NCBI GenBank assembly: GCA_964016885.1
Contig: OZ024741.1
Span: forward strand, 228,036,001-228,100,000
DNA length: 64,000 nucleotides
Source: Eledone cirrhosa
Taxonomy: Eukaryota
Reading direction: 5' to 3'
The position numbers and the translations under genes were made by a program. Every line of letters begins with the position of its first letter. Position 1 is the stretch's first letter. Shown piece by piece: positions 3,344-28,757 of the stretch. Below the pieces are notes generated by a model, which was not told the origin of the DNA, did no database searches, and saw nothing but the letters and a program-made list of their open reading frames with translations.

Positions 3344-3443
3344 TAGAAATGACTTCTACAAGCCTAAAACTCTTTCGTTCATTTGAAATCATCAGGAATC
3401 ATGATGATTCAAACGAATGAAACAGTTCTAGAAATCATTTCTA
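3344..3443. mobile_element. Mini fold-back PLE relic with degenerate hammerhead cores, related to 27850-27972
   Basis: TAGAAATGA...TCATTTCTA inverted ends; centre TCATCAGG-AAT-CATGATGA; shares GAATGAAACAGTTCTAG and the downstream ATGTATTGAGTAC with the 27.9 kb copy. Confidence 0.55.
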
Positions 3444-3824
3444 TATGAAATAAAAATGTATTTTCTTTACTAATGTATTGAGTACTTTATTTAATTATTT
3501 TTTCTTCCCTATCTCCTTCGGAAAATCAATCAATACATATATATACATATATACATATACACATATATACAAGTATATAGCTAATAAATATATATACATA
3601 CACATACACACACACACACACACACATATATATATATATATATATATATATATATATATATATATATAAACAAGTTCTAATGAGTTGATAATTCAACAGT
3701 ATAAAGGCTAAGAAAATTTAAAGCTCAATATAATTTTATAGTCCACAACAAGATAGGTAATAAACAGTCCAAAGTTTAATCGAATCACAGTGGTATTATA
3801 ATTTGACTGAGCATATCTGTAAAA

Positions 3825-5172
3825 AACGAAAGTTTAGTCTATGACGTTATTAAAACAACTCGCTAGACTAACGGGAACGAAGAGTTCAGGCCTGTAAAAT
3901 TCAGAGTCAATTAAATACAAATAATTTACCTTACGTATATATATATACCTGTGGGAGAAATAAGCGAAATTGTATATAATATCGTTTAAATATAGTAGGG
4001 AAGACGTTAAAATTATGGAAGCCTAACATAGTAATTATAAAATATAAATAATAAAATGTTTACGTTCAGTAACTCTAAATATTTCAATAACAATTATAAA
4101 TCGTTACAAAAAGGATAACATACACTAAAATAAATCTAGATTTATATAATGGGAATTATAAAGTCTATTATCACTTCATAAATGAAATTCTGAAAAAATA
4201 ATTTAGAATATTCTAAAAGAAGGTTAAAAATTATGGAAGCATAAAACAGTAATAAGAATATCTTTAATTAAAATAAATGTTTAATGACTAAGAAATTTCA
4301 CTGACTAAATAATATCAGTACTAAGGAGATAATCTACATTAAAAATAAGGGTCGGAATATAACCTAGATGCGATTTCAATTATGTGATAAATAGGAGTGT
4401 GTGCATGAATTAAAAATTAGGGTTCATTAAAATTTGTAGTTAAAAAGGGGGTAACAGATGTAAATTTTACAAGATAATATAAATGTAGGGCGTAAATGAT
4501 ACAACTTTTCTAAATGTTAATAAAAAAAAAATACTAAAAGAAAGGTTTAATGGATATAATTAATCTGGCTCGAAACTTGTATACAAGAAAGAATAAAACG
4601 GATTATTTTATTTCTTTTAAATTGACGAAGATAACTTTTGAAATCTTCGGGTAGACAAAGATTGCATATAGTTCCACCCTTTCCATGGGAGAATTTTATG
4701 CTATCGCTTTTTAAACGCCAAATTAATATAGTTAAAGAAGTCGACTTATTTGTTAATTTTTCATTCTTAAACGAATTTAAATAGAAATAAAAGCGAACTT
4801 TGTTAGCCGAAACTCTAGATATTCTACGAGATATATTATTAATAATAGATTTGGAATGGTTCGAATTCTTATGTACATAATATAGAAATCCTCCAAGTTT
4901 ATGATATGGTCTAAATATTTCAGTACCCAAATCTAGTGTGATATCCAAGAAATTGACATAACTTACTATTAGTGCCAATGGTTATAACTAAGTTATAGAT
5001 TTTAAAGAATTTTTTACAAGTGTTTCCTAACGTTCTCAAGCTCAGAATTATTAAGATCTCTCTGATGAGCTATTCTTAATAGAATGACCTCCTCATTCTA
5101 TTAACCTAGCGAAGCATTCGTAAGTCCAATAAATGTTTTAATAAGTATCCTTATCTAAACTTTCGTTCTGTA
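3825..5172 (-). pseudogene. Degraded Penelope-like element (RT thumb remnant) with an inverted short 3' copy at its 5' side
   Basis: ORF 4547-4978 has VNFLDITLDL..FRPYHK..YVHKNSNH..SIINNISRRIS and CNLCL, typical PLE RT/C-terminal motifs. 5135-5170 is the reverse complement of ~3825-3860. Confidence 0.65.
5060..5124 (+). ncRNA. Type I hammerhead ribozyme motif (A15.1>G, probably inactivated)
   Basis: CTGATGA-GCTA..TTAATAGAATGA/TCATTCTATTAA..TAGC-GAAGC-ATTC-GTA. Confidence 0.55.
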
Positions 5173-5954
5173 TATATATATATATATATTTACGCGTCTC
5201 AAAATTTTCCCTCCTATATTTTCTCTCAAAACATATTATAAGCCTATATTCATTCCATATTTCTTTCACAATTGGATCCATTTGGACACTAAAGTCTTAT
5301 TATATTGAAGCTTGTTTATCTGTTTTTGTTCTTTCTACCCTTAATTGCAAATAAAATTTAAAATTAATTGATGTATATTTTACTATTGACAATTACATAT
5401 TAAGGATATTAAAATTTCAAAACCAGATATAAATTTTAATTGTATATACATATATATATATATATATAAATATATATATGTATATATATACATATATATA
5501 TATACTTATATATATATATATGTATATATATATATGTATATATATATGCATTTTATATATATATGTGTGTTTGCGTGTATGTGTACGTGTGTATATGTGT
5601 ATGCATATATGTATTTGTAATTATATATGTGTGTGTGTATATATATGCATATACCAGCGTGTCTGTTGGTGTATCTGTGTGTCTGTGCCTCTATATGTAT
5701 ATGGTAATTTCTCATAAAACTATCTTTTATCCGGAAGTACGATACCATACATAATCTGTTTCTCTTTACTAACCGCCTTAAACACATTTATCTCCCCTTT
5801 CCTCTCTACCTGCATATTACAATTTCTTCTTTCCAATATATTTCATATATTTATTTCTTACATTTTCCAGGGCAATTTTATTAATATTTCTCTCCATTGA
5901 TTTTTTTTTCAAAATAAAGCATATTTATTATAATTAATTTTATTTATTGATCGA

Positions 5955-6800
5955 TCAAGGTTAACTTTGCCTTTCATCCTTCCGGGGACGATAAAATGAA
6001 GTACCAGTCAGGTAGTGAGACTCTGGTTTTATGACTGTAAAACTTCCCCTGCATAAATGTGTGGCTTAAGTTGTGCCTATCTTATTAATAGTTATTGTTA
6101 ATATTATCATGGTGTTGAGTGACGGAATGTAAAGAGTGTCGGACTAGATATCTTACGATATATTAGTTACGTTACTTTGCATTCTGAATTTGTAAAAAAA
6201 AACACTCTGGACTCCACTTCGTTTTTATCCATCTGCATGATCGATAAATAAATTATCAATCAAGTACTTGTTCCGTATAATGGACTAAACTCCTCTCCCA
6301 ACATTTCTGGCTTTGTGCCTATGTTAGAAATTATTAAGGGTTTTAGATCAGCAGAATCGTCAGTGTTGCACAACATGCTTTGCGGCGTTTAATTACAACC
6401 CTTTGCATTTTGAGTTAAAAACACACTGGAGTCGACTTTGCCTTTTATCCATCCGGGGAATCGATAAATAAAGTACCAGTTAAGTACTGGGGTCGATATA
6501 ATCGACTGTTCTCTACCCCCCCCCCCCCTCAAAAAACATTTCTGGTCTTGTGACTACTTAAGATATCAGATAGGGTGGTAGACCGGCAGATTCGTTAGAG
6601 CGCTTGACAAAATACGTTGCGGTATTTTGTTTGAGCCTTATATATTCTGAGATCAAATCCCGCCAAGGTCAACTTTGCCTTTCATCCTTCTGTGGTTGAT
6701 AAAATAAAGTACCTGTCAAATACTGGGTCGATATAATCGATTGTTGCCTAGCCCCAATATTTCTGGCCTTGTACCTACGTACGAAATTATTATTATTTTT
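5955..6800 (+). mobile_element. Cluster of ~4 diverged SINE copies
   Basis: Repeated ACTTTGCCTTTCATCC..GATAAA..AAGTACCAGT..GGCCTTGTGC motifs. Confidence 0.8.
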
Positions 6801-6802
6801 TT

Positions 6803-6910
6803 TTTTTTCTTAATGTCAGCCCTTGTGGCCAATAAAGAATTTATTATTATTATTATTATTATTATTATTATTATTATTATTATTATTATTATTATTATTA
6901 TTATTATTAT
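6803..6910 (+). mobile_element. Extreme 3' stub of Tx1-like family B with (TTA)n tail
   Basis: CTTAATGTCAGCCCTTGTGGCCAATAAAGAA matches the reverse complement of 34635-34670, followed by (TTA)n. Confidence 0.75.
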
Positions 6911-27242: not shown

Positions 27243-27369
27243 CCCACTGAAGAATTATAAGAGCCCACTTGAATAAGTATCTCTTGATCTTATACAAGCT
27301 TCTACATAAATTGGTATAATTTCACCCAATTTGTAGGAATCTTATAATGAAACGAGACGTCCGTCTGGG
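27243..27369 (+). ncRNA. Type I hammerhead ribozyme with long stem II
   Basis: CCCA-CTGAAGA-ATTATAAGA...TCTTATAAT-GAAAC..GTC-TGGG; a CGTC duplication lies next to the cleavage triplet. Confidence 0.65.
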
Positions 27370-27552
27370 AAGAGATATATTTGATATATCTCATATGAAA
27401 TAATACAGCCAATTTTCCACACAATACAATTAGTTAGCACCCCGAACGTTTAATTAGGAATATACTCACTTATTTCCTAATGTTTGTTGAGTGAGTTGGG
27501 ATTTGGCCGGAGTATCGCTATTAGCTTCCTCCGATAATGTATTTATATATAT

Positions 27553-27748
27553 AACTTTGACAATGTATAAACAACCATCTGGTTGTGGAACCAACCAACC
27601 AACCGGAAATTTATAAATTTATTATAATAAATTGAAGTGAAAGCAACTGGTGCAGGTGTTTCTTATTAGCAACATGGCCCTCCCAAAGTATAACAATATC
27701 GGTTTCAACACACTTTTTCAGATAAAGAATCTTGCTAAACAAATTCAA
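27553..27748 (+). mobile_element. Unpaired 3' fragment of the 28195-28757 family
   Basis: Homologous to 28542-28750 including the tail; flanked by (TA)n. Confidence 0.8.
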
Positions 27749-27849
27749 TATATATATATATATATATATATATATATATATATATATATATATATATATA
27801 TATATATATATATATATATATATATATATATATATATATATATATATAT

Positions 27850-28045
27850 AATATAGAAATGGCTTCTACAGGACAGGACTAGAACTGTTTCATTCGGGAG
27901 AAATCATCAGAGATTCCTGATGATTTGTCCAGAATGAAACAGTTCTAGTCCTGTAGAAGCCATTTCTATATTAAATATTTATACTCTGCTATGTATTGAG
28001 TACCTTACTTACTGTGGTTACCCTCGATTGAACCCGGTATGAACT
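27850..28045 (+). mobile_element. Mini fold-back relic (palindrome 27850-27972 plus ~70-nt tail) with hammerhead core at the fold
   Basis: TCATCAG-AGATTC-CTGATGA...GAAAC-A-GTT; embedded in (TA)n. Confidence 0.7.
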
Positions 28046-28194
28046 TATATATATATATGTATATATATATATATGTATATATATATATATATATATATAT
28101 ATATATATATATATATATATATATATATATATATATATATATATATATATATATATATATATATATATATGTATATATATATATATATATATAT

Positions 28195-28757
28195 ATATTG
28201 TTATACTTTGGGAGGGTCATGTTGCCAATAAGAAACACACGCACCAGTTGCTTTCACTTCAATTTAATATAAATTAAATTTATAAATTTAGGAATTTATA
28301 AATTTCCGGTTGGTTGGTTGGTTGGTTCCACAACCAGACGATTGTTCATATATTGTCAAAGTTCTTTCGTCACACATTCTGTGTCTTCTTTAGTGACTGG
28401 GGTTTCTTTTCTTTGTTTTTGTGCCTCTCCTTTGTTCTGTCCTACGCCATCTTGTTTGACGTAGGACAGAACAATGGAGAGACACAAAAACAAAGAAAAG
28501 AATCCCAGTCACTGAAGAGGTCACAGAATGTGTGAGGAAAGAACTTTGACAATATATAAACAATCGTCTGGTTGTGGAACCAACCAACCGGAAATTTATA
28601 AATTCCTAAATTTATAAATTTAATTTATAATAAATTGAAGTGAAAGCAACAGGTGCGTGTGTTTCTTATTGGCAACATGACCTACCCAAAGTATAACAAT
28701 ATCGGTTTCAACACACGTTTTCAGATAAAGAATCTTGCTAAACAAATTCAGAAACGA
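28195..28757 (+). mobile_element. Fold-back PLE 3'-end relic (palindrome 28195-28702, 13-nt spacer, ~55-nt tail)
   Basis: ~250-bp inverted arms between (TA)n tracts. Confidence 0.82.
28508..28550 (+). ncRNA. Type I hammerhead ribozyme (mirror copy 28355-28397 on minus)
   Basis: GTCA-CTGAAGA-G-GTCACA GAATG TGTGA(C/G)-GAAA-GAAC-TT-TGAC. Confidence 0.75.

Follow-up and report, generated by a model that had tools for sequence, protein, structure and literature searches.

The fold-back insertions described here bear closest comparison with EN+ Penelope-like elements (PLEs), for which earlier accounts describe an inverted-pLTR/tail architecture with a 30-40-bp tail, (TA)n targets, and a hammerhead in the pLTR (PMC8557442; PMC3846280; PMC2377424). 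Within this group, Hydra clade PLEs are described as having RWK and DKT motifs, TA insertion, and hammerheads, and the same source names the origin of PLE tandem and inverted structures as an open problem (PMC8557442). The enzyme of Poseidon from Anolis carolinensis, which is predicted to be a dimer, has been studied in vitro: two internal RT start sites bound the tail with no strand difference in start site, both strands of an AT-rich target are cut and extended, ribozyme cleavage is not needed, and the steps after priming were left unvalidated (PMC11167929).

We analyzed a 64,000-nucleotide stretch of Eledone cirrhosa DNA (the window), in which an earlier note had listed eight sites of one recurring insertion design. 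All eight are true repeat copies, with a head-to-head inversion in or next to TA runs at each (Table 1). The design itself is not novel, being a layout already published for PLEs (PMC8557442, PMC3846280, PMC11167929, PMC4209133). The sites do fall into distinct families, but grouping by sequence gives six rather than eight: family A has two copies in the window (92% identical), family B also two (81% alike across 90 nt), and families C, D, E, and F have one each. Family F is not a symmetric hairpin, as its arms measure 110 nt (the inverted arm, 5060-5172) and 1.4 kb and meet at a microhomology of 4 nt; its tail runs 156 nt past the left boundary drawn in the note and matches seven other loci.

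Table 1. Inverted-arm insertions in the window, with positions counted from its first letter
Feature	Position	Strand	Details
Family B, old decayed short hairpin	3344..3493	+	Pairing 3344-3431; sense arm decays by 3493; core 3395(-) in inverted arm; tail ~62 nt (decayed)
Family F, long arm	3669..5063	-	RT C-terminal remnant 4547-4981; 3' UTR/pLTR; 156-nt tail 3669-3824 up to TA run
Family F, short inverted arm	5060..5172	+	Begins at hammerhead core 5062(+); stops in TA run
Family A, short hairpin	7968..8533	+	Fold 8233-8234, 302 nt from 3' end; pairing to 8495; 38-nt tail; hammerhead-like folds 8153(-), 8310(+); TA runs on either side
Family A, long insertion, tail-less inverted arm	9906..12866	-	Unit positions -2999 to -39
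Family A, long insertion, tail-bearing arm	12865..15917	+	5'-truncated RT and C-terminal GIY-YIG ORF, stop 15079; 3' UTR with 162-nt duplication; pLTR; hammerhead-like fold 15691; 38-nt tail 15880-15917
Family D, hairpin	18080..18508	- (tail-bearing arm)	197-nt arms; fold 18311 at family pile-up site; 34-nt tail 18080-18113; cores 18267(-), 18355(+), one substitution in each
Family E, hairpin	26735..27013	-	Pairing 26782-27013 (74%); hammerhead core cut by fold; tail at least 47 nt
Family B, hairpin	27852..28045	+	Fold ~27910-27916, directly upstream of hammerhead core; cores 27910(-), 27917(+); tail ~63-72 nt; TA runs flank both ends
Family C, hairpin	28195..28757	+	Pairing to 28702; fold ~28450; 55-nt tail; hammerhead 28512(+), one substitution; TA runs flank both ends

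The linkage of hairpin families to PLE ORFs, as the earlier note envisaged it, extends to five of the six families, with clear PLE RT ORFs in A, C, and D and putative ones in B and F; for family E, no ORF was found in 25 loci. The intact link within the window is the long family A insertion (9906-15918), whose RT is 5'-truncated in that copy; the family A ORF matches RVT_1 (E 1.5e-11) and GIY-YIG (E 2.5e-4, slightly short of the Pfam cut-off), and tandem copies, which have a 3451-bp period in L292, L293, L295, L299, L302, L307, L321, and L329, carry an 871-aa open frame. The family D ORF matches GIY-YIG (E 1.1e-6) and, weakly, RVT_1, and RT-thumb and GIY-YIG-like frames are contiguous with the pLTR in family C. 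Family B continues beyond its tail into a broken RT-like ORF with RWR and DKT motifs; this RT piece gave no significant match to the family A protein, and the RT remnant of family F matches it (E 2e-10, 46% identity over 52 aa). No endonuclease domain was seen for B or F, which are Hydra-like by motifs alone. A CX4-CxxC linker motif makes C and D Neptune/Nematis-like by motif; its third cysteine is absent in A, and the A and D proteins share 21% identity. Family B also has ORF-less tandem derivatives, and family E has ORF-less partial tandems of ~450 nt, read by eye, in L123, L125, L127, L136, and L145. The features of EN+ PLEs are represented, namely an RT and GIY-YIG ORF, partial pLTR tandems, an inverted 5'-truncated copy with a tail, and a predicted type I hammerhead, and we conclude that the short hairpins are PLE insertions of the layout already described.

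DNA-transposon MITEs or miRNA hairpins lying in TA sites would share the TA flanks and the fixed size, and the earlier note had accepted that fixed lengths and target-site duplications of the MITE kind, with no adjoining PLE ORFs, would overturn its reading. Lengths are indeed nearly fixed in families B and D; however, junctions vary from copy to copy, and five of the six families run into PLE ORFs, which in B and F are putative. In place of symmetric terminal inverted repeats, one end carries an unpaired tail of 34-156 nt, and in place of a uniform interior with no link to RT there are varying junctions and continuity with RT and GIY-YIG ORFs. Further, hammerheads are present, and an Rfam search of the window returned no hammerhead and only miRNA-like matches, all of them far below gathering scores. 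Because the junctions vary, the ends are asymmetric, five families are continuous with PLE ORFs, and copies that lack an inverted arm share the boundary, we consider a MITE or miRNA origin extremely unlikely.

The earlier note also described hammerheads reading outward from the center. Outward CUGANGA cores are present in the window (Table 1), but most copies are mutated or cut by the fold: those with the core bear substitutions or miss part of stem I at the fold, and in family E the core is cut. A strict type I descriptor gave 0 canonical matches across the 64 kb, and a relaxed-core descriptor gave 4, all in family A and with a non-canonical core, where 0.15 were expected from simulated sequence; family A does have the hammerhead fold. 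Outside the window, copies of B, C, D, E, and F satisfy the descriptor (predicted type I, in the pLTR), and stem I of family B covaries between subfamilies. Folding energies of the six family hammerheads mostly did not stand out from those of shuffles (z -0.5 to -2.9), and it is thus the core motifs and helices that the ribozyme call relies on. We rejected ribozyme cleavage as the origin of the fold, as ends lie upstream of the core, at most 1-2 copies (L259, L266) end near the cleavage site, and sampled copies have no 5'-end pile-up at predicted cleavage sites. Ribozyme activity, or a part for these predicted ribozymes in setting the fold point, is not supported.

Copies were compared genome-wide in 3'-anchored samples of families A (25 copies), B, C, and D (29 each), earlier samples having been biased by query length; figures for E and F come from such biased samples. 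The 35-70-nt tail of the earlier note broadly fits the window copies of A, B, C, and D (34 nt in D up to ~63-72 nt in B) but is not universal, F and E falling outside it with tails above 70 nt; the family E tail is ~130 nt in copies elsewhere, and tail length and fold spread in this family are by-eye estimates. Tails stop at a TA run in 20/25 copies of A, 21/29 of B, 25/29 of C, and 21/29 of D (background 0.12-0.25), and 15/25, 18/29, 15/29, and 16/29 copies, respectively, have an adjoining inverted arm. The outer end of this arm is mostly fixed: nearly always -39 or -44 in A (where tail arms all end at -1, and both run into TA runs), -60 to -66 in 17/18 of B, -56/-58 in 13/15 of C, and -35 in 11/16 of D. 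Such TA-run tail ends above background, together with the frequent adjoining inverted arm and its mostly fixed outer end, indicate that the arrangement is not due to chance. In family D, 17/19 pairs (11/13, counted by hand, when pairs were not tail-selected) comprise one tail-bearing and one tail-less arm. Together with the ORF links, these fixed ends and genome-wide copies bear out what the earlier note had claimed about PLE origin, TA targeting, and a stereotyped product of inverted arm and tail. TA runs flanking both ends would mask any target-site duplication. The possibility that the element itself contributes the TA runs was considered; this is not obligatory, as locus L020 lies in a T run without TA.

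The 5' ends of tail arms pile up in the same samples, with 19/29 within 8 nt in family D (constant-hazard p 8e-31) and 20/29 within 11 nt in B (8e-20), and more broadly in C (6/29 within 32 nt, 1e-3) and A (4/25 within 39 nt, 5e-3), the windows for all four having been picked post hoc, after inspection of the data. The B and D pile-ups lie ~30 nt below a TATA box, and the A and C pile-ups have no clear one. Counting from the first T of the TATA box, the boundary is base 31 in 9/14 B1 and 3/4 B2 copies, although the B1 and B2 spacers differ, and base 32 in 9/11 D copies. As the pile-up below the TATA box is kept whether an inverted arm is present or not, the short hairpins are probably run-off cDNAs stopping at the start of the RNA. 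An extra G precedes the boundary, absent from promoter-bearing copies, in L059, L340, L040, L227 (B), L330, and L305, as cap copying would give; these cases are few and judged by eye; in B the majority of junctions are ambiguous, and in D a C is seen more often. The D boundary also resembles a 3' splice site. By eye, an incidental seventh family folds at the same TATA spacing.

Near-fixed lengths in B and D, one D junction that recurs across many copies, and ORF-less tandem units in B and E might alternatively mean that a few master hairpins served as templates for the short ones, each of these being a non-autonomous element copied in its entirety. Yet the recurring D junction occurs in either orientation with respect to the tail, copies with this junction belong to several haplotype groups in which promoter-bearing copies are also found, junctions in B vary widely, and the hairpins have no TATA box, which makes such copying very unlikely.

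We then compared the two arms of each insertion. In family A, paired arms share haplotypes, with 27 differing sites in 32,255 nt (0.08%, two cross-insertion comparisons being dropped), only 3 of which are family-polymorphic, compared with 1.0% between loci; gene conversion or assembly polishing could also produce such identity. The 5' ends of long family A arms lie 100 nt or less apart in 8/21 pairs (permutation mean 1.6; 0/20,000 permutations reached 8), and overall there was no significant correlation between the lengths of the two arms (Spearman 0.29, p 0.20). The arms are frequently crossed: in 10/12 young single-unit long copies (L316 and L310 set aside) the tail-less arm reaches >100 nt further 5', with an excess of up to 2.4 kb, and short copies have crossed arms about as often as nested ones. 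Junctions have a 1-12-nt overlap in 19/32 cases, or small inserts. The model that we favor, with a probability of about 0.6, is that two priming events occur on one RNA and that the two cDNAs are joined by microhomology.

A single fold-back, in which one cDNA (or antisense RNA; PMC3846280) folds and extends itself and later deletions at the center make the arms unequal, would readily give near-identical arms that often end together, and some junctions do lie on native palindromes (L298, L319). Deletion at a palindrome center can generate crossed arms, and L316, where a deletion accompanies a symmetric junction, seems to be one example. However, fold-back requires one arm to lie inside the other and is thus excluded for crossed arms as formed; random deletion predicts no bias toward a longer tail-less arm (two-sided binomial ~0.04, calculated by hand), zero-loop junctions better fit two annealing ends, and the shared boundary of copies without an inverted arm also speaks against it. 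We regard fold-back as unlikely. Two priming events on two separate RNAs, usually from the same source locus, would explain the fixed ends and start-site pile-ups equally well and would not require one RNA to be copied twice. Further, haplotypes differ in some D pairs: arm haplotypes are identical in only 6/19, some differ at two informative columns, and divergence is 3.0% within pairs versus 5.0% between, and in this family two RNAs may sometimes serve one insertion. This alternative leaves unexplained why long arms end so close together far from the start and why each priming site is used by one arm almost constantly, and as a general account it appears quite unlikely.

In the favored model of double priming on one RNA, a TA run would be cut on both strands by the enzyme of the element, and the two ends so formed would each prime a separate cDNA, with one shared RNA as template, at one of two fixed internal sites; the gap between these sites would form the tail, as seen in vitro for the anole PLE (PMC11167929). 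The two cDNAs would then probably be joined head to head via short microhomology. If priming took place in the pLTR closest to the 5' end of the RNA, both cDNAs would reach the transcription start after 130-310 nt and run off there, giving short hairpins of near-constant size; priming in the more distant pLTR of a longer-than-unit RNA would give long, variably truncated palindromes. Whether PLEs in general use twin priming, with a dimer that primes from both target ends on a single RNA, at two sites separated by the length of the tail, and with strong-stop-like cDNAs from near-5' priming being joined into thousands of fixed-size hairpins whose folds record start and cap, seems to us an even bet.

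If true, twin priming would account for the inverted arm and tail of PLEs, features that have long lacked an explanation, and start sites could be read from genome sequence alone. The Eledone genome contains short copies by the thousand as well as one very young family; their junctions distinguish between the models and yield sharp predictions about start sites and single-barcode insertions. For annotation, such hairpins are easily mistaken for MITEs or miRNA precursors.

Overall, the insertions as a group share with EN+ PLEs (TA)n targets, a pLTR hammerhead, an RT ORF that ends in GIY-YIG, tandem partial copies, a 5'-truncated copy in inverted orientation, and a tail on one side. They differ in having tails of 34 to ~156 nt (those of B, C, E, and F exceed the 30-40 bp published) and, in short hairpins, family-fixed folds ~30 nt below a TATA box, whereas Penelope of D. 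virilis is reported to be TATA-less. Family B resembles the Hydra clade in the RWR and DKT motifs of its ORF, family F through its likeness to B, and both in TA insertion and hammerheads. Family E and some B derivatives appear, like non-LTR retrozymes (bioRxiv 10.64898/2026.07.22.740005), to consist of short tandem units that carry a type I hammerhead and no ORF, although the window copies are inverted monomers. The inverted product and joining step are absent from the Poseidon work, and here, unlike there, each start site is used by one arm in most insertions. Junction statistics were not found in the open texts of the EN+ PLE literature, and a search of the literature outside subscription papers and supplements found no paper on PLE twin priming or start-site fold points. 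In L1 twin priming, the second target strand primes a second cDNA that is joined by microhomology, but the inverted pieces that result do not overlap; the arms described here overlap along nearly their whole length, and they begin at two fixed internal sites.

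Self-alignment of the window confirmed inversions at the sites where the earlier note had placed a single insertion design (inverted arm, fold point, sense arm, 35-70-nt tail, hammerhead, (TA)n), and sorted them into six families, A-F (see table), in this 3.0-Gb assembly of about 30 large contigs. The left end of family F lies at 3669 rather than at the 3825 first proposed. We note that the truncated C copy and the B and C hairpins form a chain of Penelope-like retrotransposon (PLE) insertions with TA runs between them.

Hairpin insertions and other elements of the window
Feature	Position	Tail	Remarks
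Family A	7968-8533; 9906-15918	38 nt, both copies	second copy a 6-kb palindrome, arms 2966 nt, coding for RT followed C-terminally by a GIY-YIG domain
A hammerhead-like fold	15683-15726; also 8310, 8153, 10094
Family B	3344-3493; 27852-28045	about 63-72 nt (second copy)
Family C	28195-28757	55 nt
Further C copy	27553-27747		5'-truncated, no inverted arm
Family D	18080-18508	34 nt
Family E	26735-27013	at least 47 nt; ~130 nt in other copies
Family F	3669-5172	156 nt
Small hairpins	17867-17920; 24631-24666; 28875-28918		perfect or near-perfect
LINE, presumably R4/Dong-like	41310-44735; 46114-49146; 61700-64000		near-identical, next to (AAT)n; first has an intact 1141-aa RT ORF whose C terminus carries motifs of a zinc knuckle and a restriction-like nuclease
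LINE, presumably Tx1-like	54826-60203 (-)		two ORFs (642 and 1150 aa), APE-RT, apparently intact
Decayed relatives	29700-39600
SINE-like unit, 190-210 nt	22578-23188; 25083-25477; 54186-54595		tandem arrays; unit also scattered across window

Family A tandems have a 3451-bp period at ~99% identity, and in them an 871-aa frame begins at the tail; RT/GIY-YIG frames are continuous with the terminal repeat units (pLTRs) of C and D. Beyond its tail, B enters an RT-like ORF that is broken and bears Hydra-like motifs; the F remnant matches this ORF. Family E forms short partial tandems, with no ORF found in 25 loci. Because the A and D proteins are only 21% identical, the families are distant. Short ORF-less tandem units derived from B (L210, ~330 nt; L331, L341, L344, L354, L355) fuse the ORF start or post-ribozyme region to the promoter region.

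As the earlier note had observed, hammerhead cores in the window copies point outward from the fold. None of these copies passed a strict canonical descriptor; all four family A arms passed a relaxed one, and the non-canonical A core, which has C at position 4 and U at position 6, recurs in 21 of 27 distinct tallied copies. The 1.37 Mb of loci fetched from the genome (L001-L355, repeat-rich flanks) gave 303 distinct relaxed matches. Families B, C, D, E and F are among them, as are dozens of further hammerhead families, of which many occur as outward-facing pairs. Stem I of the B hammerhead covaries between two subfamilies. No hammerhead core was found in the three small hairpins.

We resampled families A-D with 3'-end-only queries, mapping every copy among the best 30 of 40 scored matches per family and leaving out copies that lie in the window itself, together with four matches that were the second within one insertion. 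In this sample, a TA run stood at the tail end in 87 of 112 copies, an inverted arm adjoined 64 of 112, and the outer end of that arm was fixed per family. Within windows chosen post hoc, tail-arm 5' ends piled up in D (19/29 within 8 nt), B (20/29 within 11 nt), C (6/29) and A (4/25). The same 5' boundary occurs with and without an inverted arm, and in D and two B subfamilies with unlike spacer sequences it falls at base 31-32, counted from the first T of the TATA box; a further family in the flanks behaved alike by eye among the matches listed, and a few copies carry an extra G at the boundary. From sequence, we read these pile-ups as the probable result of reverse transcription running off the capped 5' end of the RNA. 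Independent family A copies also share internal 5' ends at -3228 (L316, L320), -3052/-3053 (L294, window 12865) and -2423 (L309, L318), possibly RNA break or pause sites. One A copy (L020:1498-2896) lies in a T run, with a TA repeat at neither end.

Across 40 fetched family A stretches and the window, arms of one insertion share a haplotype, differing by 0.08% (two cross-insertion rows removed) versus 1.0% between loci; conversion or polishing could also equalize arms, and haplotypes differ between arms in some D pairs. Arm 5' ends lie ≤100 nt apart in 8 of 21 long A pairs (permutation mean, 1.6), with no significant overall correlation of arm lengths. Of the 12 single-unit copies whose ends lie >100 nt apart, 10 have the tail-less arm as the longer one; this count excludes L316, L310 and copies of several units. 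A single fold-back must leave one arm within the other, so crossed copies imply either that priming occurred twice or that one side was deleted later, and such deletions could explain them. One tail per insertion is usual (17/19 D pairs). A recurring D junction, present in both polarities and several haplotypes, counts against one amplified master hairpin. The 32 arm junctions comprised 19 short overlaps, 3 blunt joins and 10 inserts, the pattern seen in microhomology-mediated joining. We propose that one RNA would be primed by both target ends: the upstream, tail-less cDNA would go first, the tail-bearing cDNA would follow and stop early more often, and their 3' ends would anneal, with gaps filled in. 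Counting against this scheme are the D pairs with unlike haplotypes, a possible equalization of arms by conversion or polishing, and deletions that could have crossed the arms.

The literature searched, supplements (perhaps with junction data) aside, yielded neither start-site fold points nor junction evidence for twin priming; together these make an open mechanism testable. A PLE integration pathway, as the earlier note inferred, is right but not new, the design being a known PLE hallmark, here in new families. PMC8557442 describes a 5'-truncated copy in inverted orientation, a tail of 30-40 bp, hammerheads in the pLTR and (TA)n as target, naming the origin of these structures unresolved; PMC3846280 gives the same layout, one pLTR with TATA/Inr, and proposes self-priming on antisense RNA; and PMC4209133 defines PLE minimal hammerheads and reports opposite-strand pairs 100-700 bp apart. 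PMC11167929 shows cutting and extension of both strands and a tail bounded by two internal start sites; its anole enzyme showed no strand bias, which speaks against our model.
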